Positions 1,740-60,695 of a DNA stretch of 64,000 bases are shown here, piece by piece. Each line of letters begins with the position of its first letter. Within the stretch, counting starts at the first letter, position 1. The notes beneath the pieces were generated by a model, which was not told the origin of the DNA, searched no databases, and saw only the letters and a program-made list of their open reading frames with translations. A program made the position numbers and the translations under genes. Source of the DNA: an uncultured bacterium (GTDB lineage: Bacteria > Krumholzibacteriota > Krumholzibacteriia > WVZY01). The stretch is from positions 26,517-90,516 of the forward strand of contig CBDVBZ010000003.1 in the NCBI GenBank assembly GCA_965372355.1, read 5' to 3'.

Positions 1740-3505
1740 GGTCGCTCGTGAGGTTTTCCCCAGAGCGCCGTTGTTGTCTGGTCGTGATGTTGTTGCTGAC
1801 GACGGCCCTGGTCTGCTCGTGCAGCGATGATTCGTCGAGCCCGACCCAGCCGCCCGCCGACGGCTCGGTTGTGTGGCACGTCCAGCGCACGTCGCAAACG
1901 CATCAGGCGGTGTGGGGGGCGAACGGCGCCGACGTCTTCGTCGTCGGAAACACGGCGCCGATTCTGAACTTCGATGGCACCGGCTGGCGCGCCACGACCG
2001 TTGGCAGCTTACCCGTCCTGACCGATGTGTGGGGGTTTTCCTCGAACAACGTGTTTACGGTGGGGGAGTTCGGCACGATCCTCCACCACGACGGGTCGGG
2101 CTGGACATCGATGGAATCCGGTACAACACAGTTTCTTTTTGGTGTGTGGGGTAGTCCTCCGTCCGATGTGATTGCCGTCGGATCGTTTGGGACGATTCTT
2201 CGTTTCGGCGGGTCCGGATGGAGCGAGATGATCAGCGGGACCACGGAACTGCTGCTGGGGGTGTGGGCGGCCTCGCCGAACGATGTAATTGTTGTGGGGA
2301 CGAATGGCACGCGGCTCCGCTTCGACGGACTCAGCTGGAGTCCGATGCCGGGTCTGGTGACGGAGACGTTGTCGGCGGTCTGGGGTACTTCGGCTAGCAA
2401 TGTGTATGCGGTAGGCGATGGCGGGAGCATTCAACGATACAACGGTTTGGCGTGGAATCCCGTGTCGAGCGGCACGACGCAGCAGCTTATGAGTGTTTGG
2501 GGTAGTGCCGCGGACGATATCTACGCTGTGGGAGACTCGGGCACCGTCGTGCACTACAATGGATCGAGTTGGCAACCCGACAGCAGCGGAACAACGATGG
2601 ACCTGCTCGGCGTCCGCGGCACCTCGGCCGCGGATGTCATCGCCGTGGGTGCAACCGGAACGATGATCCGATTCGATGGCTCGGTCTGGCAGCCTGCGAT
2701 CAGCAGCGGTCCAGCGGGGTTCATTCTCGATATGTGGGGCGAATCGGACACACTTGTCATTGCCGTCGGTGAAGCCGGTTCCATTCTCCGCTACGACGGC
2801 CGGTTGTGGGTGCCGGCAGCCAGCGGGACCGCTGACCATCTGTGGGGTGTTTGGGGTGAGACGAGAAGCGACGTTTTTGCCGTTGGATCATCCGGTACGA
2901 TCCTTCATTTTGATGGCTCGGCGTGGAATCCGATGACGAGCGGCACGAGCCAGCAGCTCATGAGCGTTTGGGGAAACACGGGCCGCGACGTCTTTGCCGT
3001 CGGCGAGTCGGGAACGATCCGGCACTACAACGGGGTGGAGTGGAGCGCGATGCAGAGTGGCACCAGCGAGCGGCTTTTTGGGGTGTGGGGGAGCGGTCCA
3101 TCCAATGTGTTTGCCGTCGGCGAGTCGGGGACAATCCGGCACTACGATGGCGCGAGTTGGAGCCCGTCGGGCAGTGGGATCTCGTTCGCGTTGTTATCGG
3201 TCTGGGGAAGCGCCCCCAACGACGTTTTTGCAGTCGGGGCGGGTGGTAAGATCATCCACTACGACGGCGCGAGTTGGGTCGAGATGAACAGCGGGACGCA
3301 GCGCAGTCTCTGGGATGTTTGGGGTGGTGATCCCGGCCAGGTCTTCGCGGTCGGGGACGGTGGGACCATACAGCGGTTCGACGGTTCAACATGGCGGACA
3401 ACATTGAGCGGTACCGCGCTATCGCTACGCGCCGTGTGGGCGGTTCCCGATCGGGCATTCTCGGGAGGCGCGAGCGGTATCATCGTCGGCGCCGCCAGTC
3501 CGTAG
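1736..3505 (+). CDS. Lipoprotein of 14 ~39-aa VWG..D(V)FAVG..G.I.HYDG..W repeats (probable double 7-blade beta-propeller)
   Basis: Lipobox-like LVCSC; 14 countable repeats; GTG at 1736 overlaps the permease TGA (start uncertain, 1730-1748). Confidence 0.8.
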   Translation: MRSLVRFSPERRCCLVVMLLLTTALVCSCSDDSSSPTQPPADGSVVWHVQRTSQTHQAVWGANGADVFVVGNTAPILNFDGTGWRATTVGSLPVLTDVWGFSSNNVFTVGEFGTILHHDGSGWTSMESGTTQFLFGVWGSPPSDVIAVGSFGTILRFGGSGWSEMISGTTELLLGVWAASPNDVIVVGTNGTRLRFDGLSWSPMPGLVTETLSAVWGTSASNVYAVGDGGSIQRYNGLAWNPVSSGTTQQLMSVWGSAADDIYAVGDSGTVVHYNGSSWQPDSSGTTMDLLGVRGTSAADVIAVGATGTMIRFDGSVWQPAISSGPAGFILDMWGESDTLVIAVGEAGSILRYDGRLWVPAASGTADHLWGVWGETRSDVFAVGSSGTILHFDGSAWNPMTSGTSQQLMSVWGNTGRDVFAVGESGTIRHYNGVEWSAMQSGTSERLFGVWGSGPSNVFAVGESGTIRHYDGASWSPSGSGISFALLSVWGSAPNDVFAVGAGGKIIHYDGASWVEMNSGTQRSLWDVWGGDPGQVFAVGDGGTIQRFDGSTWRTTLSGTALSLRAVWAVPDRAFSGGASGIIVGAASP

Positions 3506-3804
3506 TCTTCGACCCCCCTCCGCTGCTCAACGGTCATTCCGCCGTGCAATATCGGCCGCCAGACCTGTGAGAAGCACATGTGTACACCCTTCCTCCTGGC
3601 CGGCTCTTCCGATGCAACTTGATAACAGATTGGAAGTAATAGAGTTACGCGACGCTTTGGGATTGCCGATCCCCGCTTGATTCCCGCCCGGTGTTGTCTC
3701 GAAACAGGCAAGCATCTTGCAGCGTTGCCCATCGACCCGGGCGGTCTCGCCGAGTCAGCAGAGGAGAGGACAAGGAACTCAGTGCATTGCAGCGGAGGAT
3801 CGGC

Positions 3805-4794
3805 TTGAAACACGCTCTGGTTTTGACATTGGCGGTGATCCTGGTCGTCGCGGCGGCGCCGCACGCCAACCCCGATACCGTTCAGACATGCAAGGCATGC
3901 GGCGGGGACATCAGCGGGCACTGCTTCGAAACGAAGGGCAACTTCTATCACCCACACCATTTCATATGCGCATACTGCGCGGCTCCCATCACGGGCCAGT
4001 ACACGACATACCGATCCGAGAACTATCACAACGACTGCTTCAAGGATCATATCGCGCGGCGATGCACGCTGTGTCGGCAGCCGATCGAAGGTGAGTACAT
4101 CGTTGACTACTGGGGAAACGCCTATCACAAGCGACACAGTAATGAAGTGCCGACCTGCGATTTCTGCGACCGCTTCCTTTCAGCCGAAACCCTGGAGGGG
4201 GGTGTCCGGTTCAGCGACGGTCGTTCGCTGTGCGGCATCTGTCACCGCTCTGCGGTCAAGAAACTTGGCCAGGCGAGGGCACTGATGAACCAGGTGGCTG
4301 CCCAGATGCGTCGTATCGGGATGGGCTTCGATACAGTCGATCTTCGGCTTCATTTGATCGGGCTAAGAAAAATGCAGGAGATCGCCAACTTCCGCTCTCA
4401 CGATCTCAGGGGATTCACCGACTACCACGAGGAACGAAACCTGTTCGGACGGACCCGCAAGCGTCAGATCGATGTCTACCTTCTCTTCGGAATGCCGAAG
4501 GTAGAAATGATCGGCACCATGGCGCACGAGCTGACCCACGTCTGGCAGTTCCTGAACGGTCGTCTGAATTCGGATCCCGCTCTGTCCGAGGGGAGCTGCA
4601 ACTTCGTATCCTATTGGATCTTGAAGCAGATGACCCCCGGCAGGGAGGCGGATTTCATCATCGAAAGCATGTTGCGCGACGACGACTTGATCTACGGCGA
4701 AGGGTTTCGCCGTGTCAAACGGTACGTCGAGCGCAACGGGATCTCAGGCTTGCTCACCCTCCTCTCGGAACAAGACCAACGGTTACCGGACTAG
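3805..4794 (+). CDS. LIM-domain / DA1-type zinc metallopeptidase with N-terminal hydrophobic signal
   Basis: TTG at 3805 with GGAGGA RBS; LIM pattern CKAC-x-HPHH-x-CAYC-x-HNDC, second LIM-like unit, AHELTH, EGSCN, IYGEGFR. Confidence 0.85.
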   Translation: MKHALVLTLAVILVVAAAPHANPDTVQTCKACGGDISGHCFETKGNFYHPHHFICAYCAAPITGQYTTYRSENYHNDCFKDHIARRCTLCRQPIEGEYIVDYWGNAYHKRHSNEVPTCDFCDRFLSAETLEGGVRFSDGRSLCGICHRSAVKKLGQARALMNQVAAQMRRIGMGFDTVDLRLHLIGLRKMQEIANFRSHDLRGFTDYHEERNLFGRTRKRQIDVYLLFGMPKVEMIGTMAHELTHVWQFLNGRLNSDPALSEGSCNFVSYWILKQMTPGREADFIIESMLRDDDLIYGEGFRRVKRYVERNGISGLLTLLSEQDQRLPD

Positions 4795-4905: not shown

Positions 4906-5091
4906 TACGCTGCGCTCGCTCCCCTCAGACGGTGCCAGAGAGTTGGGCACGGCGCGCGTTCCGCTGCTGCTCTGCCGTTCCGCAACTTCTTGTGAAATAA
5001 TAGAATAAACACTGTGGTCGTGGCTGGAGCGGTTTTTGCAGCAGGCGGGAGGATGACTCCAATTCTGCCACCGTCACAGAGTGAGGCGCCA

Positions 5092-6303
5092 ATGAATACC
5101 AATGCCCAACGTGTCATGGGTCGACTCGGAACCGCAATTCTCGTTCTGTTCCTCCTGGTCCCCGCCTGTTCGGGGCCCTCGGAGGTCGCCGAGGGAGTGA
5201 TTACCGTGGGCGCGCCGGAACCGCGCAATGCCACGACGGTTCAGGAACTATCGCAGCGCCTTATCTGGAGGACGACCGGAGCGACAGGGGATCTCGCCGG
5301 TTACGATGTCCATTTCGGCACGACCCCGGACCCTCCGCTGGTTGAAGAGAACTACCAGAAGATGTACTACGACACCGGAGACCTCATCGTCTCGAAGACC
5401 TATTTCTGGCGTGTCGTCGCGAAGAACACCGACGGCAACTCATTCCCCGGGGATGTCTGGGTCTTTTCGACGCGTGATGGTGTGTGGGGCGAGGAAAACA
5501 GCGGGACGACCCAGAACCTGTCCGCCGTATGGGCGATTACAGGGGATGATGCCTTCGCCGTGGGAACCGGTGGGGCGATTCAGCGATGGGATGGCACGTC
5601 GTGGACCGGGATGAACAGCGGGACTCCGCTCAATCTCTTTGGGGTATGGGCGTTGTCCGCGACCGAGGCCTACGCGGTTGGCAGCAGCGGCACAATCCGG
5701 CACTGGGACGGCGCCCGGTGGGATATCGAGTCCACCACCGCAGTGTCGCATTTTCGCGCCGTATGGGGCAGTGCCGCCGATGATGTGTTCGTTGTCGGCG
5801 ACAACGGCGCCGCCTGGCACTACGATGGTGATGATTGGGATCGCGAGATCACGGGGACCAGCCGACCGCTTCTCGCCATCCACGGGACATCTGAAGACAA
5901 CGTCTTCGCCGTGGGTACGTTTGGCACCGTTTTGAGATACGACGGTGAGGATTGGAGCGAGATGAACAGCGGGACATCGGCAAACCTCGCCGGTGTCTGG
6001 TGTATCTCTCCAAACAACGTCTTCGCCTGCGGCGCTTTCGGTGCGGTTATTCGATACGACGGAAACAGTTGGACTGAAATGGTTACGAATTCCGCCAACG
6101 GGTTGAACGCCATCTGGGGCAGCGCTCCGACAAACGTGCTCGCCGTGGGGCAGTTCGGATCCATCCTCCGTTTCAACGGAACCGAGTGGTACAGTATGGT
6201 CAGCAATACCGCCGTACCGCTCACCGGCGTGTCAGGAGCGGCACGGGGCGATGTCCATTCCTGCCGCCAGACCACGTCCAAAATCATGCGTTACCGTCCC
6301 TGA
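5092..6303 (+). CDS. Lipoprotein with Fn3-like domain and 7 VWG-type beta-propeller repeats
   Basis: ATG 5092 with GAGG RBS; lipobox VPAC; YDVHFG...YFWRVVAKN segment; 7 repeats paralogous to 1736-3505. Confidence 0.8.
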   Translation: MNTNAQRVMGRLGTAILVLFLLVPACSGPSEVAEGVITVGAPEPRNATTVQELSQRLIWRTTGATGDLAGYDVHFGTTPDPPLVEENYQKMYYDTGDLIVSKTYFWRVVAKNTDGNSFPGDVWVFSTRDGVWGEENSGTTQNLSAVWAITGDDAFAVGTGGAIQRWDGTSWTGMNSGTPLNLFGVWALSATEAYAVGSSGTIRHWDGARWDIESTTAVSHFRAVWGSAADDVFVVGDNGAAWHYDGDDWDREITGTSRPLLAIHGTSEDNVFAVGTFGTVLRYDGEDWSEMNSGTSANLAGVWCISPNNVFACGAFGAVIRYDGNSWTEMVTNSANGLNAIWGSAPTNVLAVGQFGSILRFNGTEWYSMVSNTAVPLTGVSGAARGDVHSCRQTTSKIMRYRP

Positions 6304-13198: not shown

Positions 13199-14279
13199 GG
13201 TTCTGGCCGTGGTCGGAGCGCGGCCCAACTACATGAAGATGGCGCCGATCTGGCGCGCGCTCGAGAAACAGGAGCATGTGACAAAACGTCTGGTTCACAC
13301 TGGCCAGCACTACGATCACAACATGTCCAAGATCTTTTTTGACGAGCTCGAGCTTCCCAAGCCGGATGTCTATCTTGGCGTGGGGTCGGGGTCTCACGGC
13401 GAACAGACCGCGAAGGTCATGGTCGAGATAGAGAAGGTCCTGATGGAAGAGCGTCCACAGCTTCTCGTTGTGGTGGGTGACGTGAACTCGACGATGGCCG
13501 GTGCGCTCGTCGCCGCTAAACTCGGAGTGCCGATCGCGCACGTCGAAGCGGGGTTGCGGAGTCGCGACCGCACGATGCCCGAAGAGATCAATCGAATGGT
13601 CACCGACATTCTGGCGGATCTGCTGTTTACAACGGAAGCCAGTGCCGAGCACAACCTGACAGCGGAGGGCATTGACAGAGAAAAGATCCATTTCGTCGGC
13701 AACGTGATGATCGACAGCCTCATGTTTTACCGGCCCATGGCCGAACGGTCGGCGATTCTCGACGATCTGGGGTTGAAGCGCCAGGGGTACGGGCTGATCA
13801 CGCTGCATCGTCCCTCGAACGTGGACGATCCCGCGACGTTCGAGCCGATCCTTCGAGTGCTCAAGGAGTTGGGTAAGGAGTGCCCTCTCGTATTTCCGGC
13901 GCACCCGCGAACCCGAAAGGTGATCGAAAACAGCGGGATAAAGATCGAGGGTGGAGAGATCACGATGATCGATCCGGTGGGATACCTCGATTTCGTCAAG
14001 CTGATGCTGCACTCGAGAATCGTCCTCACCGATTCCGGCGGTATACAGGAAGAAACGACGGTGCTCGGGATACCCTGTCTGACGATCCGCGAGAACACCG
14101 AACGGCCGATCACGATCGACATAGGTACCAACCGGCTGGTTGGCACAAACCCCGATCGGATACTGACAGAAGGTCGTAATGCGCTTCAGGCTGGCACGTC
14201 GTCGGGGAAGATACCGGAGCTTTGGGACGGGAAGGCAGCCGAACGAATTGTGAAGGTTATCGATGAGTTCTGCCTATGA
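13188..14279 (+). CDS. wecB: UDP-N-acetylglucosamine 2-epimerase (non-hydrolysing)
   Basis: GARPNYMK, HTGQHYD, HVEAGLRS, PEEINR, TDSGGIQEE. Confidence 0.93.
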   Translation: MAYKVLAVVGARPNYMKMAPIWRALEKQEHVTKRLVHTGQHYDHNMSKIFFDELELPKPDVYLGVGSGSHGEQTAKVMVEIEKVLMEERPQLLVVVGDVNSTMAGALVAAKLGVPIAHVEAGLRSRDRTMPEEINRMVTDILADLLFTTEASAEHNLTAEGIDREKIHFVGNVMIDSLMFYRPMAERSAILDDLGLKRQGYGLITLHRPSNVDDPATFEPILRVLKELGKECPLVFPAHPRTRKVIENSGIKIEGGEITMIDPVGYLDFVKLMLHSRIVLTDSGGIQEETTVLGIPCLTIRENTERPITIDIGTNRLVGTNPDRILTEGRNALQAGTSSGKIPELWDGKAAERIVKVIDEFCL

Positions 14280-15784
14280 AGTACGAGGGATCCAGTTGGT
14301 CGTTTGAGGACAGCTCGCTGGGGCGGAGTTTTCTGTGGGGCCTGGCGATCACCGCTCTACCGGCTGCATCCGGTTTTGTCGTCTCCTGGGTTATCGCGCG
14401 ATGGGCCGGTCCCGGTGTCATGGGGACCGTTTCGTGGGTCATGTCGTATGCCACGGCGGTTCTCATCGTCGGTAAATTCGGGCTGGACCTCGCGGCCTCC
14501 CGCCTGGCAAGCGAGTATGGTGTCGCCTCCCCGGGGACACTCCGCCCGTTGTTCGCGAAGGCTCTCGGTCTTCGGGCCGCGTTCACGCTCCCCGTCGCAC
14601 TCCTGACACTCGTTTTTGCCCCGCAAATCGCGCAGTTTTTCCCCGATTCTGATCTGACGAACGCGATCCGGGTCGGGGCGCTGATCGTCGTCTGTGCAAG
14701 TGTCTACGAATTCAACGAGAACTTCCTGATCGGTCTGAATCGTCTGGCAACCGTTTACAGGATCCGCGCGGTACATCTGGTCTCGAGAGTCGCGGCGACG
14801 GCCGTGCTCGTTTTTCTCGGGTTTGGCGCCGTTGCCGTTCTCGGCGGATACTGTGGGGCGTGGCTCCTCGCGATCGCCGTCTACGCGGTGCTGCTCCATC
14901 GATACCTGCCCGCTTCTGACCCTTCGAGCGACCGCGCCGATGTCGGGAGGTTGCTCACGCTCAGTGTGGCCCTGGCGGTGAGCAGCGCTTCTGTGACGAT
15001 CTATTCTCACATGGACAGACTCCTGCTGGGGTATTTCTCCGGGATGGAGGAGCTTGGCCAGTACGCCGTGGCCCGGAACATCACGGAGGTGTCTCTCTTT
15101 CCCGTCTTCGCCATGGTGATGATGCTTCGACCGGCGCTGGCCGCCCGGTTTTCCACAGGCCGCGTGTCCGAGTGCGCCGATATCATCCGGTATTCCATTC
15201 GGTTCTGTTTTGTGATCGGCGTCCTGTTTTCGGCGATTTTCGTTGCACTCGGAGCCGATCTGGTCACGTTCGTCTATTCGGATGCCTTCCTGCCGGCCGG
15301 TCGGCTCATGGTCTTCTTCGTCGGGGTCGTGCTTGCCCGATCCATCGGAGCCGTGCTCCTGCCCGCCCTGATCGCAGCCGATATGACACGTGTATATGCT
15401 TATTTAACAGCAGGATCGGCCGTTCTTCATTTTTCTCTCAATCTCTTCCTCATCCCCCGTTACCAGTCCCGGGGGGCGATAGTCACCACAATCATCTCCT
15501 ACGGCCTCCTCCTCGCCGTCGGGTTGGGTGTCATGCTGGCCAAGTATCGAATTCCCATCCGCTTGGCCGCATTCTCCATCGCTGCTCGCACGATTCTTGC
15601 TGGATGCATCGCAACCGCCGTCGTCTGGCTGTTGGCAGATCGAGCCGAACCGCTTTCGTGGGTGGCACTGGTGTGGGCGGTGCTCCTTCTGGGGCTGTAT
15701 CTGTTTTTGATTTATGTGCTTCGCGTGGTGACTTTTAGCGATCTTAGTAAACTGTTCAGTAACCTAAGTAAACAAAAGAGATAA
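14276..15784 (+). CDS. Wzx-type oligosaccharide flippase (MOP superfamily)
   Basis: ~12-14 TM segments, MDRLLLGYF...GQYAVA motif, location in sugar cluster. Confidence 0.85.
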   Translation: MKYEGSSWSFEDSSLGRSFLWGLAITALPAASGFVVSWVIARWAGPGVMGTVSWVMSYATAVLIVGKFGLDLAASRLASEYGVASPGTLRPLFAKALGLRAAFTLPVALLTLVFAPQIAQFFPDSDLTNAIRVGALIVVCASVYEFNENFLIGLNRLATVYRIRAVHLVSRVAATAVLVFLGFGAVAVLGGYCGAWLLAIAVYAVLLHRYLPASDPSSDRADVGRLLTLSVALAVSSASVTIYSHMDRLLLGYFSGMEELGQYAVARNITEVSLFPVFAMVMMLRPALAARFSTGRVSECADIIRYSIRFCFVIGVLFSAIFVALGADLVTFVYSDAFLPAGRLMVFFVGVVLARSIGAVLLPALIAADMTRVYAYLTAGSAVLHFSLNLFLIPRYQSRGAIVTTIISYGLLLAVGLGVMLAKYRIPIRLAAFSIAARTILAGCIATAVVWLLADRAEPLSWVALVWAVLLLGLYLFLIYVLRVVTFSDLSKLFSNLSKQKR

Positions 15785-15884: not shown

Positions 15885-16964
15885 TTGTTTTTGCTCCACG
15901 CATCGATGGCATTTATCATCTCTTTCGGCATTGTCGCGGTCGCGACTCCGTTTATCCGAAGACTCGCCCTGCGCTGGAAGCTCGGCCAAAAACCCAATGG
16001 CCGCAAAGTATGCTCGCATACGATTCCCCACGTCGGCGGAATCGGAATAGCCGTTGGGACGTTGGTTAGCATTTCACTGGCCGGTCTGCTGTTCGACGGG
16101 GGCGAGAGCGGGACTCTCGGGTTACTCGGACGCATGTTGCTACCGGTCGTTCTGATTGTTGCCCTGGGCGTCGCCGACGACACGAAGTCGCTGCGGGCGG
16201 GTCAGAAGTTGACGATCCAGGTTTTTTCTGCAGTCATCCTCGTGTTTTCGGGGATTCAGTTGTTCACAGGCTTCCGACTCCTGGATCAAACTTCGCTTTT
16301 CGCGCTCCTGTTTACGTGCTTCTACCTGGTGGGGATTTCCAGTTCGGTTAATCTGATCGATGGCCTCGATGGTTTGGCCGGTGGTCTATCGGCGATCTCG
16401 GCGGGCACGTTTGGCGTGCTCGCGATACTCGTCGGCGCACAACCGCTTCTGTTTGTGTCGCTCGCCGTTGCGGGCGCGTGCATCGGTTTCTTGATATACA
16501 ACTTTCCCCCCGGCAAGATTTACATGGGTGACACGGGCAGTATGTTTCTGGGTCTCGTCCTCGGGGTCATTGCGTGCTATTTCACAATGCTGCAACCCAC
16601 TATCAATACATTTGTTGGCGTGGGGCTGATCCTGATCATCCCGATGGCGGATTCCTGGTTGGCGATCGCAAGACGACTGGCGCTCCACACGCCTGTGTTT
16701 CAGGCAGACTCGCTTCACATGCACCACGTGTTGTTGCTGCTTGGTTTGTCTCCGCGGCAGACGCTGGCGATTCTCTATTCCATGCAAGCGGTTATGGCGA
16801 TTCTCGGGGTCCTCACGGTGAAGGGTCTGATGATACCGATGATCCTGGGTTTCGTTCTTGTCGGCCTGATCTTCATCTCCTTCATCCGCATCATGGTGGC
16901 GTCGAAGGAGCGGAGTGAGACGGTGTCGGCCAAACTTGCCTCGGTTCCTTCTCTCGAAAAATAG
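15885..16964 (+). CDS. WecA/TagO (MraY-family) polyprenyl-phosphate HexNAc-1-P transferase
   Basis: IPHVGGIGI, GVADDTK, VNLIDGLDGLAGG, NFPPGKIYMGDTGS, LHMHHVL. Confidence 0.9.
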   Translation: MFLLHASMAFIISFGIVAVATPFIRRLALRWKLGQKPNGRKVCSHTIPHVGGIGIAVGTLVSISLAGLLFDGGESGTLGLLGRMLLPVVLIVALGVADDTKSLRAGQKLTIQVFSAVILVFSGIQLFTGFRLLDQTSLFALLFTCFYLVGISSSVNLIDGLDGLAGGLSAISAGTFGVLAILVGAQPLLFVSLAVAGACIGFLIYNFPPGKIYMGDTGSMFLGLVLGVIACYFTMLQPTINTFVGVGLILIIPMADSWLAIARRLALHTPVFQADSLHMHHVLLLLGLSPRQTLAILYSMQAVMAILGVLTVKGLMIPMILGFVLVGLIFISFIRIMVASKERSETVSAKLASVPSLEK

Positions 16965-17091
16965 TTTCCACCGCGCGAGAAGTTTCATGCTAGACTTAGT
17001 CCGTTGACGATTGGGCTGTGTGTGTGCTACGTTTTGGATTCGTTCCTTCTTTCTTTTTCTAACAGACGACTCATTCTTTGGGAGTAAAGTT

Positions 17092-18015
17092 GTGACGACG
17101 GCTACTCGTTGTCGAATAGCAGGTGACCTCGATTACCTCTCCAAGTTGCAGCTCGAGGAAGTCTCGCAGACGCTCAAAGAACATCATCCGAAGCTAGCCA
17201 TCGAACTCGTTGAAGACGAAGTTGGAGACCCGGCTGGCATCAGCGATGAGCAGCCCAACTCGCCGAGCAGAATCGCATTCTTGATGAGCCAGCTTCTTGG
17301 CGGGAAGTTTGACGCGCTCGTCTTGAACGCCGCGCATCTGCCCACAAGGCTGCCCGATGGTCTGACGATCGGAGCGGTTACGAATCGTCTCACTCCGTTT
17401 GATGTCCTGATCTCGACGGACGACTGCATACTCGACGAGCTACCCGAAAACGCGGCCGTGATAGCGAATGAGTTGCGACGGGAAGCGCAGCTCCTCTACT
17501 ATCGGTCGGATCTCAAAATGGTCCGCGCGAAGGGGAGCATCGACTCGATCATCCAGAAGGTCAAGAACGGCAAAGTCGACGCGGCGATTCTGGCAGCGGG
17601 GGACGTCGAGCGGTTGCAGAAGCAGGACCACGTGGCGGATTTCCTCAACTGCTCGATATGTATACCGGCGGCCGGTCAAGGATCGCTAGCCGTTCAGGTA
17701 CGATCGGACGACGAACAAGCCAAGAAATCGATCCGCGCGATAAACGACCCCGCGTCATACGCAGAGATAACCGCCGAGTGGGCGTTTCTCGATTTCTTGG
17801 GGATCCACGTCGACGCCCCGGTCGGTGTGTTGGGGAGCGTCGAGGGGAACAAGCTCGAGCTTGAGGGAATGGTGGCGTTGCCCGATGGGCGCGAGCGAAC
17901 TCGAGAGATCGTCAAGGGCTCGGTCGGTCACGAAATCGAGTTGGGCAAGAAACTCGCCGCCGAGATTCTCGAGTCCGGCGGGAGGACGATGTTGCAGGAG
18001 TTGGATCTTCTTTAA
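17092..18015 (+). CDS. HemC (hydroxymethylbilane synthase) fold protein lacking catalytic residues
   Basis: Colinear with HemC (LRREAQL, DAAILAA, IPAAGQGSLAV, TAEWAFL, PDG) but HSMKD->LNAAH and EGGC->GIHV; GTG with GGGAG RBS. Confidence 0.85.
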   Translation: MTTATRCRIAGDLDYLSKLQLEEVSQTLKEHHPKLAIELVEDEVGDPAGISDEQPNSPSRIAFLMSQLLGGKFDALVLNAAHLPTRLPDGLTIGAVTNRLTPFDVLISTDDCILDELPENAAVIANELRREAQLLYYRSDLKMVRAKGSIDSIIQKVKNGKVDAAILAAGDVERLQKQDHVADFLNCSICIPAAGQGSLAVQVRSDDEQAKKSIRAINDPASYAEITAEWAFLDFLGIHVDAPVGVLGSVEGNKLELEGMVALPDGRERTREIVKGSVGHEIELGKKLAAEILESGGRTMLQELDLL

Positions 18016-18051
18016 TCCCCTTTCCGATTATCCCAGGAGAGCAGAAGGACA

Positions 18052-19320
18052 GTGCTGGATCGGCGTCTAATTCGCGAGGACCCCGATAGGGTTATCGAGG
18101 GTGTCAAAGCCAAGGGTGTCGATGTCGATATCGACCGACTCATCGCTTTGGACAAGAAGCTTCTCGAGAATATGAAAGAGAGTGAGCAGCTCAAACACGA
18201 ACGCAACGTCAAGAGTGAGGAAATCGCGAAGAAAAAGCGGGCCGGTGAGGACGCGTCCGAGCTTCACAAGTACCTGAAGGAACTCTCCCAGCGAATCAAG
18301 GATTACGAAGCCAAGGACAAGGAGGTCAGCGAGGAGCTCGATGACCTGCTGCTGCTCGTCCCCAATATTCCGCACGAGAGCGCGCCGGTCGGACACGGTG
18401 AGGAAGACAATGTCGTCGTCCGCAACGTTGGCGAGCAAAAGGAACTGTTCGAGGACATCAAACCGCACTGGGAGATTGGTGAAGAACTCGGTGTTCTCGA
18501 TCTCGAGGCGGGGCGCAAGGTAACGGGACGCGGGTTCATCGTGTTTCGAGGCGACGGAGCGCTGATGTGCCGCGCTCTGATCAACATGATGCTGGATATC
18601 CACGTCGAGCAGGGTTACGAGGAGATCCTCCCTCCCTTTGTTGTTAACCGCGATTCCATGATCGGCACCGGGCAGCTGCCGAAGATGCAGGATGACATGT
18701 ATCTTTGCGAGATCGATGACCTCTTCTTGATCCCGACCGCAGAGGTGCCGGTCACCAATCTCGATCGAGAGTCGTTTATCCCGGTCGATCGGTTGCCGAA
18801 AAAATACACGGCTTATACACCGTGTTTTCGAAGAGAAGCAGGAAGTCACGGCGCCGATACACGGGGTCTGCTACGTGTCCACCAGTTCGACAAGGTCGAA
18901 ATGGTCAAGGTTGTGCATCCCGACACGTCATACGACGAGCTGGAAACCCTCCTCGGGGATGCCGAGGTGGTTCTCGACGCGCTGGAACTCCCGTACCGTG
19001 TCGTGGAGCTTTGTACCGTGGATCTGAGCTTCGCCGCGGCCAAGTGCTACGACCTCGAAATATACGCGCCGGGTGTGGGGAAATGGCTCGAAGTGTCTTC
19101 GTGTAGCAACTTCGAGGACTTCCAGGCGCGCCGCGCGGGGATCCGGATCAAGAAGACGCCCGGCGAGAAGCACCGTTTCCCCCACACGCTCAACGGATCC
19201 GGTCTCGCACTCCCCCGGATCGTCGCAGGGATCCTCGAATATCACCAAACGCCAACCGGACGTGTTAAAATCCCCCCAAAACTGGTACCCTACATGCGTG
19301 GCAAGGAGTATTTGGGCTAA
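18052..19320 (+). CDS. serS: Seryl-tRNA synthetase
   Basis: N-terminal coiled coil; LIPTAEVP, CFRREAGSHG.DTRGLLRVHQFDKVE, EVSSCSN, HTLNGSGLA. Confidence 0.97.
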   Translation: MLDRRLIREDPDRVIEGVKAKGVDVDIDRLIALDKKLLENMKESEQLKHERNVKSEEIAKKKRAGEDASELHKYLKELSQRIKDYEAKDKEVSEELDDLLLLVPNIPHESAPVGHGEEDNVVVRNVGEQKELFEDIKPHWEIGEELGVLDLEAGRKVTGRGFIVFRGDGALMCRALINMMLDIHVEQGYEEILPPFVVNRDSMIGTGQLPKMQDDMYLCEIDDLFLIPTAEVPVTNLDRESFIPVDRLPKKYTAYTPCFRREAGSHGADTRGLLRVHQFDKVEMVKVVHPDTSYDELETLLGDAEVVLDALELPYRVVELCTVDLSFAAAKCYDLEIYAPGVGKWLEVSSCSNFEDFQARRAGIRIKKTPGEKHRFPHTLNGSGLALPRIVAGILEYHQTPTGRVKIPPKLVPYMRGKEYLG

Positions 19321-19412
19321 GCGGCGAGGAGCATGGTGAGCGCCTTGCGAGCGAGGCTCTTTCTTGGGGCCCTCGCTCAACTTCGCTCCCTTCAAGGACA
19401 GGCCGGCTAGCC

Positions 19413-19525
19413 GCGTCTGCGGGGGGTGGCGCCGTCCCGCAAGAGCGCAGCCTTGTGGGCTGTTCGGCGACCCCCTCCGGGGACCCTCTTTCAGAGGACA
19501 GGCAGGCAGGACTCGACGCAGACGC
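19413..19525 (+). repeat. Structured intergenic repeat, copy C
   Basis: Different but perfect terminal stem GCGTCTGCG/CGCAGACGC around the same core; preceded by CCCTTCAAGGACAGGC. Confidence 0.8.
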
Positions 19526-19589
19526 GATGGATTCCCGTGAAGGGATCCTGCGGAAGACCTCACTCGCTCGGCGCCGACGACTGACTAAA

Positions 19590-20855
19590 ATGTTCAATCA
19601 ATTCTCGAACTATCGTGGGAATGTCCGTTTCTGGCTCAAGGCCTACGTGTTCGTGGTCGTGGCCGTGCTGGTGCTCGGGATACTCCTCTATACCAATCAC
19701 GTCGTCGGGCGCATGGAAGCACAGTCTGAGGCGTCGACACGTCTGTTCTCGAGGTTTATCGCGGAGGTGATTTTCGAGGTAGAGGACGCCGGCAAACGAG
19801 AGATCCTCCAGGACGTCATCGAGGGAATCAACCATCCCATCATCCTCACAGATTCGGACGGACGCCCGTTTGCCTGGCACCGCGTCCCAATACCCGAAGC
19901 CCCCGATGCGGATTTCGATAGCCTGTTCACGATCGACCCCGACAACCCCCCGGCCGGCTACATCGCCGATGCCATCGCGCTCTACCGCAGATTCGACACG
20001 GACAATCCACCGATTGCGATTCGGGAGTCGGGTTCCCAACTCGTCGTCGGGTACGTTCATTTCGGGGCATCTCAGCTCCAGCGGGAGCTCCGCCTGGTGC
20101 CGTTCATTCTGCTTGGTCTTTTCCTCGTCTTCGGGTTTGTTGGGTTCCAGGGGTTCCGTTATCTCAAGATCAGCGAGCAGCGCTCCATCTGGGTCGGTCT
20201 TGCCAAGGAGACGGCGCACCAGCTCGGCACACCGCTCTCAGCCCTGCTCGGCTGGACGCAGCTGCTTAGAGATCAGCTCACCGAGAACCGTGAAAAAGAC
20301 GCGATGGTCTCGGTAGGTGAGATGGAGGAGGACCTCAAACGGCTCAGCAAGGTCACGGAGCGGTTTAGTAAGATCGGCGCACGACCCGAGCTGCGACGTA
20401 TCGAGCTCTCTCCCGTTCTCGATCGGACGGTGAAGTATTTCCACAGACGCTTGCCGCGCCTCAAGGCGGATTCCACGATTTCCCGTGACTTCGAGGATAC
20501 GCCACCGATCAACGCCAACGAGGAACTCATCGAATGGGTCTTCGAGAATCTCATCAAAAACGGACTCGACGCGATGGGGGACAAGGGCGGCAGAATCGAG
20601 ATCCGGACCCGGTACGATGAGTCCCGCGGCAGGGTCGACGTGTTTGTCAGCGACACGGGCAAGGGTGTCCCCGCCGCACTCAGGCAACGCATTTTCTCAC
20701 CGGGGTTTACGACGAAGAAGCGAGGGTGGGGTTTGGGGTTGACGCTCACCCGCAGGATCGTCGAAGAATACCACGGCGGCGAACTCCGGCTCATCGACTC
20801 GCAACCTGGACGTGGCAGCACGTTCCTGGTGCGTTTTCCCATCGCACAGCCGTAA
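19590..20855 (+). CDS. Membrane sensor histidine kinase
   Basis: Two TM helices; H-box ETAHQLGTP, N-box ENLIKNGLD, G boxes DTGKG and GWGLGL; alternative start 19527. Confidence 0.92.
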   Translation: MFNQFSNYRGNVRFWLKAYVFVVVAVLVLGILLYTNHVVGRMEAQSEASTRLFSRFIAEVIFEVEDAGKREILQDVIEGINHPIILTDSDGRPFAWHRVPIPEAPDADFDSLFTIDPDNPPAGYIADAIALYRRFDTDNPPIAIRESGSQLVVGYVHFGASQLQRELRLVPFILLGLFLVFGFVGFQGFRYLKISEQRSIWVGLAKETAHQLGTPLSALLGWTQLLRDQLTENREKDAMVSVGEMEEDLKRLSKVTERFSKIGARPELRRIELSPVLDRTVKYFHRRLPRLKADSTISRDFEDTPPINANEELIEWVFENLIKNGLDAMGDKGGRIEIRTRYDESRGRVDVFVSDTGKGVPAALRQRIFSPGFTTKKRGWGLGLTLTRRIVEEYHGGELRLIDSQPGRGSTFLVRFPIAQP

Positions 20856-20961
20856 CCAGCAGAATCCGGTATCCTGTATCGTTCAAAGGCTTTATAATTA
20901 TACGGCAAGCGGGGTCGGCCCCGTGGCGGATCGGGTTAAACCAATCTGAGAGAGGTAGCCA

Positions 20962-22512
20962 GTGGCAGTTCAGCGGATACTCTGGGTGGATGACGAGATC
21001 GAGCATCTCAAGGCGCACGTGCAGTTCCTCGAGGGAAAGGGCTACGAGGTCCAGTCCGCCACGAACGGCGAGGATGCGATCGAGATGGTGCGCACACGCA
21101 CGTTCGACGTGCTGCTTCTCGATGAAAACATGCCCGGTATGGGCGGTTTGGAAACACTGAACGAGATCAAGGAAATCGACCCCGGTCTTCAAGTGGTGAT
21201 GATCACGAAGAGCGAGGAAGAGCAGCTGATGGACGATGCCATCGGTATGAAGATCGCCGGGTATCTGCTCAAGCCGGTTAGCCCGATGCAGATCTACTCA
21301 GCGTGCAAGCGGATACTCGATTCGGAACGCCTGCAGGAGGAACGCTTTTCACAAGAATACGTGAGAGAGTTCAACAACATGACAAACCTGATCCACGAGG
21401 CGTCGTGGGACAGCTGGCTCCAGATACACCGCAGGCTGTGCTCGTGGGACCTGGAGTTCGACCGTTTTCGCGAGAGCGGCTTGACCAGCACGCACGAGGA
21501 TCAGAAACAGAACGCAAACCGGCAGTTCGGCCGCTTTATCGAGAAACAGTATCCAGAGTGGCTCCATTCCGAAGATCGTCCTCCGCTAAGCACCGATGTG
21601 TTTTCGAAGTTCGTCGCCCCACATTTGAAGGCGGGGGAGAACGTTTTCTTTATCGTGATCGACTGCGTCCGGCTCGATCAGTGGCTCGTCATCGAGGAGT
21701 TACTGCGGGACGAATTCGAGATCCAAAAGGACTACTATCTCTCGATTCTTCCGACGGCCACACCGTACGCACGAAACGCGATCTTTAGCGGTCTGTTCCC
21801 AGACGACATCGCCAGGAAGTATCCGGAGAAGTGGCTCGAGAAGTCGAAGGACGAGATCAGCAAGAACCGATACGAGGAGTTCTTTCTGAAGCAGCAGATG
21901 CGCAGACACGGGTTGTCGCCGGAGCGGACGAAGTACATCAAGATCTACGCGGTTCGGGAGGCCGAAGAGCTTAGAAAACGGATCGATAACCTGGTGACAC
22001 TGCCCTTCGTAGCGCTCGTCTTCAACTTTGTCGATATGCTCACGCACGGCCGGAATCAATCCGAGATTCTGCACCAGATCGCACCCGACGAATCGGCGTT
22101 CCGATCGGTGGTGCGCTCGTGGTTCTCTCACTCGGTTCTGCTCGACATCTTTAGGGAGCTGGCGAGAAAAAAGGTAAGAGTGGTCATGACCACCGATCAC
22201 GGATCGATTCTCGGCAAGCGCGCAAGTCTCGTTCACGGAAGGCGGGACACATCGGCGAACCTGCGCTACAAATTCGGGGACAACCTGAAATGCGATGGGC
22301 GGCAGGCGATCATCACGCGTCGGCCAGGAGTGTTTCGGTTGCCCGCCGAATCGAAGACAAAAAGCTACCTGTTCGCCAAAGAGTACTACTATTTTGTCTA
22401 CCCGACGAATTATCGGGAATACGAGAACAAATACCAGGGCAGTTTTCAACACGGTGGGGCCTCGCTCGAAGAAATGATACTGCCGTGTCTTACGGCTACA
22501 CCAAAGCCCTGA
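20962..22512 (+). CDS. porX: PorX-family response regulator (REC + PglZ/alkaline-phosphatase domain)
   Basis: REC WVDDE, LLDENMP; IVIDCVRLDQW, LPTATPYARNAIF, VDMLTH, TTDHG, FQHGGASLEEM. Confidence 0.85.
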   Translation: MAVQRILWVDDEIEHLKAHVQFLEGKGYEVQSATNGEDAIEMVRTRTFDVLLLDENMPGMGGLETLNEIKEIDPGLQVVMITKSEEEQLMDDAIGMKIAGYLLKPVSPMQIYSACKRILDSERLQEERFSQEYVREFNNMTNLIHEASWDSWLQIHRRLCSWDLEFDRFRESGLTSTHEDQKQNANRQFGRFIEKQYPEWLHSEDRPPLSTDVFSKFVAPHLKAGENVFFIVIDCVRLDQWLVIEELLRDEFEIQKDYYLSILPTATPYARNAIFSGLFPDDIARKYPEKWLEKSKDEISKNRYEEFFLKQQMRRHGLSPERTKYIKIYAVREAEELRKRIDNLVTLPFVALVFNFVDMLTHGRNQSEILHQIAPDESAFRSVVRSWFSHSVLLDIFRELARKKVRVVMTTDHGSILGKRASLVHGRRDTSANLRYKFGDNLKCDGRQAIITRRPGVFRLPAESKTKSYLFAKEYYYFVYPTNYREYENKYQGSFQHGGASLEEMILPCLTATPKP

Positions 22513-32478: not shown

Positions 32479-33303
32479 ATGAGAAAAGCTCGCACCGTCG
32501 AGCTCGGGAAGGGACTCACCGTGAAGACTCGGATCCTCGTCATCTTGATCCTGTTTTTTGCCGGCTTGCCTGCAGGCACGTCCTGGGCCGAGAGCAGCTT
32601 TTTTATCCCCGGTGTTGATTTCTCGAAGCTGGTTCTCGAGGAGGGTGCCTGGTGTCGTTACCGGATCGCCGACGAGGCGCTCGGTTTGATCGACTCGAGC
32701 GAGATCTACGTCGGTATTCCATCGAGCGAGATGACACCGGAAGGGCACGCCTTCTGGGTGGAGATCGAGACGCGGCCGGTGGGGGCAGGGACGGCAGAAG
32801 CCCAGGTCCTGAAACTACTTGTCTTGGAACGAATAAGGAACTTTACCGTCGGGGATTCACTGGGCGACTACGTCGTCAGGTTGTATAGTAAAAGTGGCGC
32901 ACATCCGCCCCAGGAAGAGGACCCGAAGGAGTTCAGACGGTTCTCCCTGGTCATCCCCACGACGGATTCCTCATGGGTAGCCACGCCGGACGTGCCGACC
33001 GCCACGGCGGGAGGAGATTTTACCTGCATCAGAAAAGAACGTGTCGTCGTAGACGACAAGGAGATCCCCACCGGCAACATCACGTTGATCAAGAAGGCAC
33101 GGGACGACTTCAAGGTATGGTTCTGTGATGATATCCCGGTTTTCCGGCTTGCGAGGTGTGAAATCGTTCGGGTTCGAGAGACGGAAACGGTCCCCAAGAT
33201 AAAGGGGATACCCGCATCGGGCCGGAAAGACTCGAGAACGACCGCAGAGCTTGTCGCCTTTGGCTACGATGCCAGACCGATTCTGCCCCTGGAAGGGCGA
33301 TAA
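32479..33303 (+). CDS. Hypothetical exported protein
   Basis: Signal-peptide-like ILVILILFFAGLPAGTSWA; coding codon bias; no family recognised. Confidence 0.65.
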   Translation: MRKARTVELGKGLTVKTRILVILILFFAGLPAGTSWAESSFFIPGVDFSKLVLEEGAWCRYRIADEALGLIDSSEIYVGIPSSEMTPEGHAFWVEIETRPVGAGTAEAQVLKLLVLERIRNFTVGDSLGDYVVRLYSKSGAHPPQEEDPKEFRRFSLVIPTTDSSWVATPDVPTATAGGDFTCIRKERVVVDDKEIPTGNITLIKKARDDFKVWFCDDIPVFRLARCEIVRVRETETVPKIKGIPASGRKDSRTTAELVAFGYDARPILPLEGR

Positions 33304-33319
33304 CCAAGGAAGGTCCGTG

Positions 33320-35516
33320 ATGCGTCACCTATGGGGCTGTGTTACTGTTCTGCTCCTGGGGTGTGTTTTGCTTCCACAACCGGCCGCGTCGGCCGCGGGA
33401 GACCCGCCTGCCAAGGTAAATGCATACGCAATAGAGGATGGTCCCAAACAGAGGATATTCATTCGGTGCGGTTCCGTGACTGAATCCGAGGTCATTGCGC
33501 TCAGAAAGAGGCTGACGGAATCGGGTGCCGAGAAGGTCAATCTCTTCTTCTCGTCCGTCATTGGGTGCGAGATACCGACCGCTCTCGATCCCGGGGAGTT
33601 GATCGGTGATGATCGCTTTTCGTTTATAGAGGAGTCCCGCGTCGACGTGGCGAAGTCAGCTACCGACGAGATCGCGCGGGTCAAACAGTATTATGAGATG
33701 GCGAACAAAGTGGCCAACGGTGGACCGTCACTGATCCCGTCGGCCGATTTCCACGATCGCGTCGTTTACAACTCCCCCGAGATCATCGAGAAATCAAGGT
33801 GGCGTCCGGTCGAGGGCGCGCCGGGGCAGTTCGCCGCAGGGCGGGGTGTCAGTGAGAACTCCGAGTTCATGATTGGCGACGTCCTGGTTCAACTCGTATT
33901 CCCCGAGAGCGAAGGTGTGACGCAGACCGAGAACTGGACGAACCGGGAGCTGATTGACGCGAGCCAGGGCTCCGTCGTCGGCTCGCTCGCCTATCAGCAG
34001 ACGTATGGCTATGTACCGATCAGCTTTGTGTTCACGAAGGTAGAACGGGCCGAGATCTCCTTCGAGCCGATTCATCACAACCTCAACAATGACGCCACGA
34101 CCTGGATACCCAACGTCATGACGAACATGGGTTACGGTGGGCCAAAGGATGCCTAGGTGGCGGTCCACAACTACAATGAGGAAGGCCGCAGGCGTTTCGG
34201 TACCGATTGGGTTTTTACGGTCTTTATCGCAAACAGTCGCAACGAGCCCGGTCATATCTTCTCGGGCAGCACCGGCGCCGTCGGATTGTCAGTCCAGCTC
34301 GGGATACCTGAACTACCTGAACCGGAACAAACAGACGCGTATGATGGATGGAACCATCGTCGGCTGTCCGGACTATGTTGATTGCCTGATGTGGAACGCG
34401 CGGGCGTCCGAAGAGTCCGGACGACCGATATGCAAATGGACCGCAGGACAGATCGGTACCATCGACGGCAACGGCAACGGTATACCGAACGTGTTCGACA
34501 GGGGGCCGACCGTCGTGTTCGAGGGAGATACCGAGGTATACGTCAGGGATCCAAGTATCACGCTGAGGATGACGGCCAAATCGTTGGCGGTGCAAAACCG
34601 CAACCCGAGGCACGACGCCGCAAAGGACTACGCCGCACCGCTCAAGGATGCGGTTTTGAGTATCGATGGGATCGGGGAGATCCGCCTCGATCCGGATGAC
34701 GGACGGTGGAACGAGGCCGAGGAGGAGTTGACGTTCGCGCTCCACGGCCTCTCTGGAGGATTGACACGTGTCCAGGTCCGCGCGCGCAACGCGTTCGGCG
34801 CGGGATCGGGCACGATAGAGAAGAGAATCTACTTTCTCGGACTCAAGTTCGCGTTGTTCAACTTCCGCATGGAGAGGGACTTCATCGAGACGAGATGGAA
34901 GACTGTTGGCGAGACGTTTGATGCGAAAATCGATTTGTACCGCATCACAAACGTATTCGGCACCCCCGACACGACGTTGGTAGAGGCCAATGTTCCAGCG
35001 GAAAATCCCGGAGAACTCTTTCAGAACTACTCGGTCGTGGATAGCGATATCACACCGGGACACGAGTATCACTACTTTGTGGTGGGAAGTTTCGAATGGA
35101 GCGGTCCCGACACAACCGAGACGATCTCCACGCAATATGGCACGTTCGATATCCGAGCGATGTTGCCCCTGAGCGGCGGGCAGCATGTATCCAATGTCGC
35201 GCCGAATCCTTTTCGCGAGACGACAACGATATCGATTGATGTGCCGCAGACGTTTGTCGACACTGAAGTGGGTGACCTGCCCGGTGCCGGGTTCGGGATT
35301 CCCAGGGAGGTGCCGACCGAAGTGGCGATCACGGTCTATGATGTCAAGGGCCGCCTCGTAAAGGATATATACACCGGTAGCCTGTTCTCGCGTGTCGTAT
35401 CGTTTACGTGGGATGGAACCAACGCGAACAACCAACGTGTACCGTCTGGTGTATACTTCATCAGAGCCTCAGCGGGCCCTGTGCAGGAAGTCAGGAAGGT
35501 TGCCGTCGTTCGCTGA
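33320..35516 (+). pseudogene. Disrupted secreted protein (probable metalloprotease) with C-terminal FlgD-Ig domain
   Basis: In-frame TAG at 34154-34156, coding-like continuation, frame change near 34270; 3' part ends NVAPNPF...ITVYDVKGRLV...WDGTN...PSGVYF. Confidence 0.7.
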
Positions 35517-37069: not shown

Positions 37070-37140
37070 ATATGCTCGCAACTTGTTTATTAACAATGTA
37101 ATTTATCGTATTGTCTTCGGCTTTCACGCGGAGGTTCGTC

Positions 37141-48853: not shown

Positions 48854-49086
48854 AGCCGGACATCGTCGTGGATACAAGAGGCCTGTTCTGTCCCGCCCCC
48901 ATCATCAAGACTTCTGAAGCCATGCGCTCGATCGACACCGGCGGAGTGGTCGAGGTCATATCCGATGATCCGGCCATCGAGTTCGATATGCCGGCGTGGT
49001 GTGAGAGCCAGGGGCACACGATCGAATCGATCACGATCGAACGTGATGCGTTCCTTTACCTCGTAAAGAAAACGGGTGGGGAATGA
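48850..49086 (+). CDS. tusA: TusA/SirA-family sulfur carrier
   Basis: DTRGLFCPAPII, VISDDP...DMPAWC; ATGA overlap with upstream stop. Confidence 0.9.
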   Translation: MKPDIVVDTRGLFCPAPIIKTSEAMRSIDTGGVVEVISDDPAIEFDMPAWCESQGHTIESITIERDAFLYLVKKTGGE

Positions 49087-49171
49087 TGCCGCTGTGTCTG
49101 GACACGCCCGTGTCTTTTTGATAGTGTTGTGCAGTCGGTTTTTGCAATAGTGCTTCGGAGGTGATGAAGTA

Positions 49172-57526: not shown

Positions 57527-57594
57527 CGACGATAGTGAGAGCGGCACTATACCGCTTTGGCTGACCGCATTCGGGTGGTAGAATACCGCCAATC

Positions 57595-60671: not shown

Positions 60672-60695
60672 GTCGTGTGCACCCCTTCGATAGAC

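Follow-up and report, generated by a model that had tools for sequence, protein, structure and literature searches.

A catalytically degenerate HemC homologue next to serS in Krumholzibacteriota and related phyla: a probable relic of a hem operon kept as a pseudoenzyme

The stretch of DNA analysed here, referred to as the window, comprises 64,000 nucleotides of a contig (CBDVBZ010000003.1) from an uncultured bacterium of the Krumholzibacteriota, and carries, just upstream of the seryl-tRNA synthetase gene serS, an intact gene for a homologue of hydroxymethylbilane synthase (HMBS, the HemC protein or porphobilinogen deaminase) in which both the catalytic aspartate and the cofactor-anchoring cysteine are missing. 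This HemC-like protein belongs to a family of uncultured bacteria whose aligned members all lack these two residues, and whose low dN/dS ratios and intact reading frames are those of a gene in use. Taken as a whole, the data are explained, in our view and with moderate confidence, by an exapted pseudoenzyme, the positional relic of a hemC gene that would once have belonged to a hem operon at this locus.

The HemC-like open reading frame (ORF) runs on the forward strand from a GTG start at 17092 to a TAA stop ending at 18015 and encodes 307 amino acids (aa). A Shine-Dalgarno motif read from the sequence (GGGAG, 17080-17084, forward strand) lies 7 nt before the GTG; an in-frame TTG at 17011 would give a longer product, but homologues begin instead with MTT(I/A)TRCR, which the N-terminus of the 307-aa form matches. 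The product hits Pfam PF01379 (2e-34) and PF03900 (1e-9), as well as TIGR00212, the NCBIfam equivalog model for hemC (169.8 bits, cut-off 164), and it aligns along its whole length with all HMBS structures solved in the PDB, including those of B. megaterium (5ov6, 7.5e-34) and E. coli (1pda, 3e-30). An AlphaFold2 model built from 106 family sequences has the complete three-domain HMBS fold (pLDDT 91.7, pTM 0.89), with a single disordered stretch at residues 43-51 of the active-site lid remnant. The best 32 Foldseek matches of this model against the PDB are all HMBS structures (1ah5: TMq 0.89, rmsd 2.2 Å), followed by solute-binding proteins with a TM of about 0.4. Judged by these matches, homology to HemC is far beyond chance. 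A previous reading made from the letters of the window (the sequence-only reading) had described full-length colinearity with porphobilinogen deaminase and an intact ORF with a good ribosome-binding site 36 bp before serS, and had named a comparison with the HemC hidden Markov model and a structure prediction as checks; its coordinates, frame and start are all correct, and the Pfam, TIGR00212, PDB and model results agree on the colinearity.

The active site of this protein is deeply altered. Aligned to E. coli HemC, taken as the reference and identical in sequence to PDB 1ah5, it shows D12 in place of R11 (TRQS to GDLD), A81 and H82 in place of K83 and D84 (HSMKD to LNAAH), K147, I153 and W230 in place of R149, R155 and R232, and V240 in place of C242, the anchor of the dipyrromethane cofactor (EGGC to GIHV), while R131/R132 (as R129/R130) and R176 (as R174) are retained. 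All these replaced and retained residues had been listed in the sequence-only reading, and each was reproduced. The alignment adds further losses, namely S13 to D14, F62 to R60, S81 to N79, N151 to S, G173 to D171 and T127/S128/S129 to A/N/E, together with a lid 8 residues shorter than that of E. coli, whose acidic and variable remnant (residues 41-54, forward-strand positions 17212-17253, with pLDDT below 50 over residues 43-51) has lost K55, K59 and F62. Among the seven conserved arginines three are kept (R131, R132 and R176), and R11, R149, R155 and R232 are gone. The marks of a functional HemC (Cys242, Asp84, the full arginine set and a lid with K55/K59/F62) are absent from the window protein, and what is found is the hallmark of a pseudoenzyme, a clear enzyme homologue without the catalytic residues. 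Asp84 is needed for every deamination step of HMBS, and it is very probable, to judge from its residues, that the HemC-like protein has no HMBS activity.

The core family comprises at least 120 protein clusters among the matches listed, at 55-87% identity and nearly all of 304-307 aa, and its named hosts are metagenome-assembled genomes (MAGs) of Krumholzibacteria, Krumholzibacteriota or Latescibacterota. A scan of GTDB species genomes gave 35 loci, with 33 family members at 52-74% identity and one relative at 39%, and the ORF is intact and constant in length in the 35 species-level genomes. The 106 aligned members, all of about 304-307 aa, share 37 invariant columns, and none of the 106 has the catalytic Asp or the cofactor Cys. 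The position of Asp84 (codon H82, 17335-17337, forward strand, as for the codons that follow) is occupied across the family by Y, H, A, S, C or F, and that of Cys242 (codon V240, 17809-17811) by E, D, P, A, S or Q and never by Cys; their columns stand at the 91st and 85th percentiles of entropy, respectively. Invariant in the 106 members are D12 and D14, within the D12-L13-D14 codons (17125-17133) that replace R11-Q12-S13 of the substrate-carboxylate site, as well as R60 and D171 (17602-17604), the latter replacing G173, a Gly in 90% of canonical HemC. R129-R130 (17476-17481) and R174 are conserved at 96-97%, position 127 is mostly acidic (D/E), and the hinge residues Q196/G197, together with R99, R204 and E229, are also conserved, so domain motion is probably kept.

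For comparison, about 150 representatives from a library of 1.8 billion proteins were tabulated, 105 of them canonical. In these 105, R11, S13, Q19, F62, S81, K83, D84, S129, R131, R132, R149, N151, R155, R176, Q198, G199, R232 and C242 are essentially invariant (Cys at 242 in 105/105), and many such catalytic and binding residues are missing from the serS-linked clades in the same table. The median pI is 4.96 in the core family and 7.70 in canonical HemC. Pairwise Nei-Gojobori (NG86) estimates of dN/dS on unsaturated genome pairs, the same pairs being used for three genes, gave 0.09-0.2 for the HemC-like gene, compared with 0.1-0.2 for serS and 0.15-0.3 for the glycosyltransferase gene upstream. 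By these estimates, the protein is almost certainly maintained by purifying selection as strong as that on serS, and given the low dN/dS and the intact orthologous ORFs it is read as a maintained pseudoenzyme or a neo-functionalised protein, not as a dying gene. The sequence-only reading had spoken of a maintained pseudoenzyme and proposed dN/dS as a check, and both the absence of Asp and Cys throughout the family and the selection data support it well. Neutral decay of the orthologues was not seen and was rejected on the dN/dS and the intact orthologues. A decaying pseudogene or a chance ORF, to which the loss of active-site residues could point, is practically negligible as an explanation given an ORF of equal length in 35 genomes and at least 120 protein clusters, the dN/dS of 0.09-0.2, the 37 invariant columns and the pLDDT of 91.7. 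Among the core-family loci, one (JACQXT010000081.1) comes from a MAG titled 'Chitinivibrionia' in GenBank, all other named hosts being Krumholzibacteriia or Latescibacterota, which could mean that this MAG was labelled or binned differently, or that the family is more widely distributed.

The origin of the gene is suggested by its closest canonical relatives. Of the fully canonical HemC proteins, the one that scores best with the family profile (P0125, 241.8 bits) belongs to a clade with P0289, P0292 and others from an uncultured lineage (GCA_964531335.1, GCA_975968025.1), and the HemC proteins of this P0125/P0289 clade, at 37-38% identity, are canonical at every catalytic and binding position. 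On the longer contigs of this lineage, genes for CitMHS, Lon, epimerases, a UDP-glucose dehydrogenase and another epimerase are followed by a sirC-like gene (PF13241), hemC, a cobA/hemD fusion, hemB, hemL, serS, a histidine kinase, a response regulator with a PglZ domain and tsaE. The window reads sugar epimerases, UDP-glucose/GDP-mannose dehydrogenase, epimerase, UDP-GlcNAc 2-epimerase, a Wzx-like flippase, Glycos_transf_4, the HemC-like gene, serS, histidine kinase, response regulator with PglZ domain, tsaE, tsaB and rimI; the flanking genes of the two loci are 38-64% identical and in the same order, and the CitMHS gene has its counterpart at 471-1739 of the window. No hem gene was found anywhere in the 64 kb, as the sequence-only reading had said. 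The canonical HemC of this clade, moreover, already has the lineage-specific motifs that set the dead family apart from other HemC proteins (RLTPFDVLIS, ILDDLP, AQLLxYRPDL, VERL..Q and C(L/I)PA). E173, Q178, Y137, C190 and T101 had been considered as markers of a new function, and Cys190 as an alternative cofactor anchor, and both ideas were rejected upon finding the same residues in canonical P0125/P0289 HemC.

Since the closest canonical hemC occupies a collinear sirC-hemC-cobA/hemD-hemB-hemL-serS locus, we regard the HemC-like gene, with considerable confidence, as a relic left in position by a hem operon that lay here. An ancestral hem operon would have lain upstream of serS, and sirC, cobA/hemD, hemB and hemL would have been lost from the locus in the ancestry of Krumholzibacteriia, Latescibacterota, Eisenbacteria and their relatives. 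The hemC gene alone would have stayed, losing its chemistry and remaining under selection for a role other than that of HMBS, and both its adjacency to serS and its co-transcription would be inherited from the ancestral arrangement. The sequence-only reading had taken the neighbourhood of serS as a clue to function. The adjacency itself stands, and the synteny check that it proposed found serS next to the HemC-like gene in 30/30 core loci showing both flanks; its functional meaning does not, because a canonical hem operon occupies the same slot and descent explains the arrangement better, and adjacency as proof of a functional link was accordingly downgraded.

A profile search of the library returned the core family in a single cluster (50% identity, 506 bits), and then, after a gap, other HemC-like proteins at 190-250 bits and the continuum of canonical HemC. 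Many of the proteins at 190-250 bits also lack Cys242, each with further losses of its own: K83-D84 are kept in P0139/L036, P0160 (Candidatus Eisenbacteria) retains R11, D84, R149 and N151, and even R131/R132 are lost in the P0123/P0129 group. Six of the seven Cys-less clades looked up (L036, P0129 in the closed genome CP070727.1, P0126, P0160, P0270 and P0271, with P0131 grouping with P0270 and P0142 with P0271) are found directly upstream of the block serS, histidine kinase, response regulator (PglZ) and tsaE. Their upstream neighbour is in most cases Glycos_transf_4, which gives way to rpsP in Eisenbacteria and to methionine-synthase-like genes in P0271. In the Eisenbacteria locus (L044, DASTBI010000013.1) a 119-aa TPR gene stands between the dead HemC and serS; features of this locus lie at L044:8823-9182 and 13931-15109, and its tsaB and rimI are apparently fused (392 aa). 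The exception is the seventh clade, P0223, which adjoins a Fur-family gene instead of serS and appears to be a separate case. Its gene (L050:1417-2310; GCA_003574095.1, QWLA01000095.1) has Leu for Cys242 and Tyr for Asp84, retains R11, S13, Q19 and K83, and lies after three small unannotated ORFs and directly upstream of the Fur-family regulator gene. P0223 may thus represent a dead-HemC lineage of independent origin, in a context related to iron or haem. In a neighbour-joining tree of HemC, all the Cys-less clades fall together outside the P0125 clade and on the longest branches, and the differing sets of retained residues fit two histories, one in which Cys242 was lost early and the clades then eroded independently, and one of parallel losses.

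With regard to the present role of the protein, about 6 of the roughly 10 basic residues of the cleft are gone and four (near-)invariant acidic residues have been added (D12, D14, D/E127 and D171). Within the core family, the two residues of HMBS chemistry are free to vary, and the domain 1-2 cleft is lined by invariant residues of mixed charge. The sequence-only reading had suggested the binding of a tetrapyrrole or another anion, which is now disfavoured because the cleft is acidified and of mixed charge, the basic residues being lost and the median pI having gone from 7.7 to 5.0. What we propose, with low confidence, is a cytoplasmic and non-catalytic binding or regulatory module that would use the rebuilt domain 1-2 cleft, in which D12, D14, D171 and the mostly acidic D/E127 would face R60, R129, R130 and R174. 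This mixed-charge set could bind a small cationic or zwitterionic ligand or a Mg2+-phosphoryl one. In another version, the new acids (D12 and D14 in domain 1, D171 and D/E127 in domain 2) would form pairs with the arginines that remain, taking the place of the cofactor carboxylates by which the two domains are normally bridged, and the resulting stable, cofactor-free conformation would serve as a scaffold for protein-protein interactions. Ligand binding through the cleft is put forward tentatively, and the idea of a single ligand deserves modest weight given that the cleft residues differ between the wider clades; the ligand sensor or regulatory partner of the sequence-only reading would be one of several options. 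It is also conceivable, although unlikely, that a second, non-catalytic function of HemC in this part of the bacterial tree keeps the protein over phylum-scale times after the surrounding tetrapyrrole genes have been deleted. If true, this would define a new class of HMBS-fold binding or regulatory proteins, which might act together with SerS or sense a small metabolite, cationic or phosphorylated, and would operate in cytochrome-rich bacteria that are perhaps unable to make haem.

Several points weigh against the view of an exapted relic with a rebuilt cleft. Residues are assigned to the cleft by homology with E. coli HMBS. In the wider set of Cys-less clades, position 11 is occupied by D, K, E, M, R, L or G and positions 131/132 by RR, VR, VE, IS or NR, and because the former cleft residues differ in this way a single conserved ligand site for the whole Cys-less group is unlikely. 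The grouping of the dead clades in the neighbour-joining tree may be due to long-branch attraction, and the tree of SerS, response regulator and histidine kinase has no outgroup, so that the dead clades may go back to one inactivation or to several. Finally, bacteria that need haem may carry a canonical hemC with a hem operon elsewhere in the genome, and such a copy would turn the relic into a left-behind duplicate.

This last objection leads to a rival explanation, in which a full canonical hem set with a real hemC lies elsewhere and the serS-linked gene is a paralogue freed for a new role. Multihaem cytochromes, Cyc2 and cytochrome c oxidase have been reported in MAGs of Krumholzibacteriota and Eisenbacteria (PMC11495043, PMC9769843), so these organisms need haem. 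Even so, in the lineage with the closest canonical hemC this gene fills the corresponding syntenic slot as part of a hem operon, which points to descent in situ, and no second HemC homologue was found within about 10 kb in about 40 loci. Closed genomes that carry the dead gene are CP070677.1, CP070631.1, CP070727.1 and OY970173.1. Searches with the HemC and HemB of the operon lineage recovered its own clade and then Nitrospirota, Desulfobacterota and similar groups, with no named match from Krumholzibacteria, Latescibacterota or Eisenbacteria among the best 120 listed, most of which are nameless; this absence is weak negative evidence. A left-behind paralogue appears rather unlikely on balance, and the bacteria with a dead HemC would either be tetrapyrrole auxotrophs or have a second set of hem genes elsewhere. 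The linkage to serS invites a different explanation, that of a partner working with seryl-tRNA synthetase, for instance in the modulation of its activity or in the binding of serine or tRNA, a role that would account for the two genes staying together. All the serS-linked loci examined have the HemC-like gene ahead of serS, whatever its own upstream neighbour, at a distance of 3-43 bp except in the Eisenbacteria locus with its intervening small TPR gene, and no terminator-like site separates the two genes; a mixed Asp/Arg cleft in a solute-binding-like fold would, on general knowledge, suit amino acids. However, a working hemC is already in this neighbourhood, separated from serS by other hem genes alone, and the linkage therefore needs no functional explanation. 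Moreover, the SerS of the window is an ordinary bacterial enzyme of 422 aa, and domain fusions, tried as functional hints, were rejected, since every long or fused representative is a canonical HemC and no dead HemC fused to another domain was found. A SerS partner is accordingly regarded as quite improbable.

A catalytic role could also be imagined, in the form of a new activity built on the HMBS scaffold, for example a Mg2+-dependent reaction on a phosphorylated or amino substrate through the strand-end D12-x-D14, D171/E173 and the retained arginines. A possible parallel is ATP-phosphoribosyltransferase HisG, which has a comparable two-lobed fold with a C-terminal domain. In favour of this reading, the derived D12, D14, R60 and D171 are invariant at former active-site positions, whereas the positions of D84 and C242 vary freely, and Q196/G197 of the hinge, R99, R204 and E229 are conserved. 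Against it, no match in sequence or structure to another enzyme family was found, the next Foldseek matches being solute-binding proteins with a TM of about 0.4, and the wider serS-linked clades do not conserve the putative catalytic residues; such a neo-enzyme seems unlikely. Far less probable is a working HMBS with an unconventional attachment of the cofactor (e.g., through the conserved Cys190 or Cys7) or with no cofactor at all. It could call on the TIGR00212 score above the cut-off (169.8 against 164 bits), on the kept R131/R132/R176, Q198 and G199, and on the reported use of haem by these organisms, but a canonical HemC scores 349 bits with the same model, and the essential Asp84 lies at one of the most variable positions of the family. 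B. megaterium D82A/N/E variants have been crystallised. The protein has an acidic substrate site and is without R11, R149, R155, F62 and the lysines of the lid, whereas 105/105 canonical proteins keep all these residues, and Cys190 occurs in the canonical P0125 clade too, which makes it a lineage marker instead of a new anchor.

Upstream of the HemC-like gene, on the same strand, lies the Glycos_transf_4 gene (WecA/MraY-type, 15885-16964), which is replaced by other genes in distant clades, and downstream a 36-bp spacer (18016-18051) with an AGGAG motif at 18035-18039 and no terminator-like hairpin leads to serS (18052-19320, forward strand; GTG start, 422 aa, PF02403 and PF00587), the conserved downstream neighbour at all serS-linked HemC-like loci examined. 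A terminator-like hairpin at 19342-19357 (forward strand), which is a consensus match only, is the probable end of a HemC-like/serS transcription unit, and the two genes are probably co-transcribed, judging from this layout. The histidine kinase and the response regulator with a C-terminal PglZ (alkaline-phosphatase-like) domain follow at 19455-22512 on the forward strand. The order Glycos_transf_4, HemC-like, serS is found in 30/30 of the core-family species loci that extend over both flanks, the HemC-like gene and serS being 3-43 bp apart, and the series serS, histidine kinase, response regulator (PglZ) and then tsaE-tsaB-rimI recurs in every related lineage examined, among them the lineage whose hem operon still works. 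No Rfam or tRNA match was obtained in the window, and a CXXCH scan of the window and 29 core loci gave nothing informative, just one ORF with a single motif.

Other genes of the window are worth a brief record. At 3691-4794 (forward strand) a 367-aa ORF combines a LIM domain (PF00412, 1.2e-9) with a DA1-like peptidase domain (PF12315, 6e-12), a pairing typical of plant DA1 proteins and, as far as is known, unusual in bacteria. At 35657-38277 (forward strand) a cystathionine beta-synthase-like gene (PALP and CBS domains) adjoins a gene for a PLP enzyme of Cys/Met metabolism, and from their domains both look like a reverse-transsulfuration pair. An RNase_H_2-superfamily gene beside an MrfA-like helicase (DEAD and MZB Zn-binding domains) at 56614-60081 (forward strand), and a macro-domain protein with a SLOG-cluster4 protein at 60114-61142 (reverse strand), may form a neighbourhood for DNA repair or nucleotide signalling. 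The long ORFs with coding-like GC3 at 1730-3505, 5014-6303, 32479-34156, 39188-39958 and 49031-50080 gave no Pfam match at E≤1e-5.

In practical terms, the members of the family score 159.7-169.8 bits with TIGR00212, straddling the cut-off of 164, and the canonical relative scores 348.7, which is why their annotation is inconsistent: JGI names the protein hydroxymethylbilane synthase throughout, and PGAP does the same or calls it 'hypothetical protein'. Pathway reconstructions for these MAGs will count a haem/B12 step as present though the enzyme very probably cannot work, and the calls of haem and B12 pathways for these phyla are probably inflated. Were these phyla to lack HMBS, they would be auxotrophs for haem or tetrapyrroles, which would change how their ecology and cultivation needs are read. 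The dead HemC, spanning Krumholzibacteriia, Latescibacterota, Eisenbacteria and unnamed relatives, offers a natural example of an enzyme gene outliving its operon, and the invariant swaps of Asp for Arg in a retained arginine cleft provide a testable model of how a cofactor-dependent fold can be stabilised or repurposed after the loss of its cofactor.

Among known systems, the closest is HMBS/HemC itself (EC 2.5.1.61; 1PDA/1AH5, 4MLQ/5OV4-6), with which the window protein has in common the three-domain fold (TM 0.86-0.92), full-length collinearity at 28-29% identity, a gene that would descend from the hemC slot of a hem operon, and the conserved hinge and core residues R101, Q135, R140, D142, P194, G197, Q198, G199, R206 and E231 plus the PDG motif. 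Unlike HMBS, it has no Asp84 and no Cys242, hence no covalent dipyrromethane cofactor, and other residues stand in place of R11, K83, R149, R155, R232, F62, S13, S81 and S128/S129. Its lid has 8 residues fewer, its cleft has turned acidic (pI about 5 versus about 7.7) and no hem genes are nearby. Its TIGR00212 score of 170 bits compares with about 350 for the canonical relative. The canonical P0125/P0289 HemC shares with it the lineage motifs and the chromosomal block, with epimerases and UDP-glucose dehydrogenase upstream and serS, histidine kinase, response regulator (PglZ) and tsaE downstream, but differs in having the canonical residue at every catalytic and binding position and in lying inside sirC-hemC-cobA/hemD-hemB-hemL, so that hemD, hemB and hemL come before serS.

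More distantly, domains 1 and 2 resemble type II periplasmic solute-binding proteins (TauA 6SSY, IseP 8T9T, SiaP 2XWO) in their two alpha/beta lobes, cleft and hinge, with Foldseek E-values of about 1e-8 to 1e-9, a TM of 0.36-0.44 and 10-17% identity, although the two-lobed fold is a property of all HMBS. A mixed Asp/Arg cleft is typical of the amino-acid-binding members of that group. The window protein differs from them in its extra domain 3 and in the remoteness of the structural similarity; by eye, its N-terminus MTTATRCRIAGDLD shows no hydrophobic export signal, and its neighbours are Glycos_transf_4 and serS, with no transporter genes. In the searchable literature, no catalytically dead but selectively maintained HemC/HMBS family and no HemC pseudoenzyme was found. 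The family is best compared with the bacterial pseudoenzymes kept after the loss of a pathway, which are likewise homologues without catalytic residues under purifying selection; it departs from that class in that its gene would have arisen in place from the enzyme gene itself and would not be an extra paralogue.

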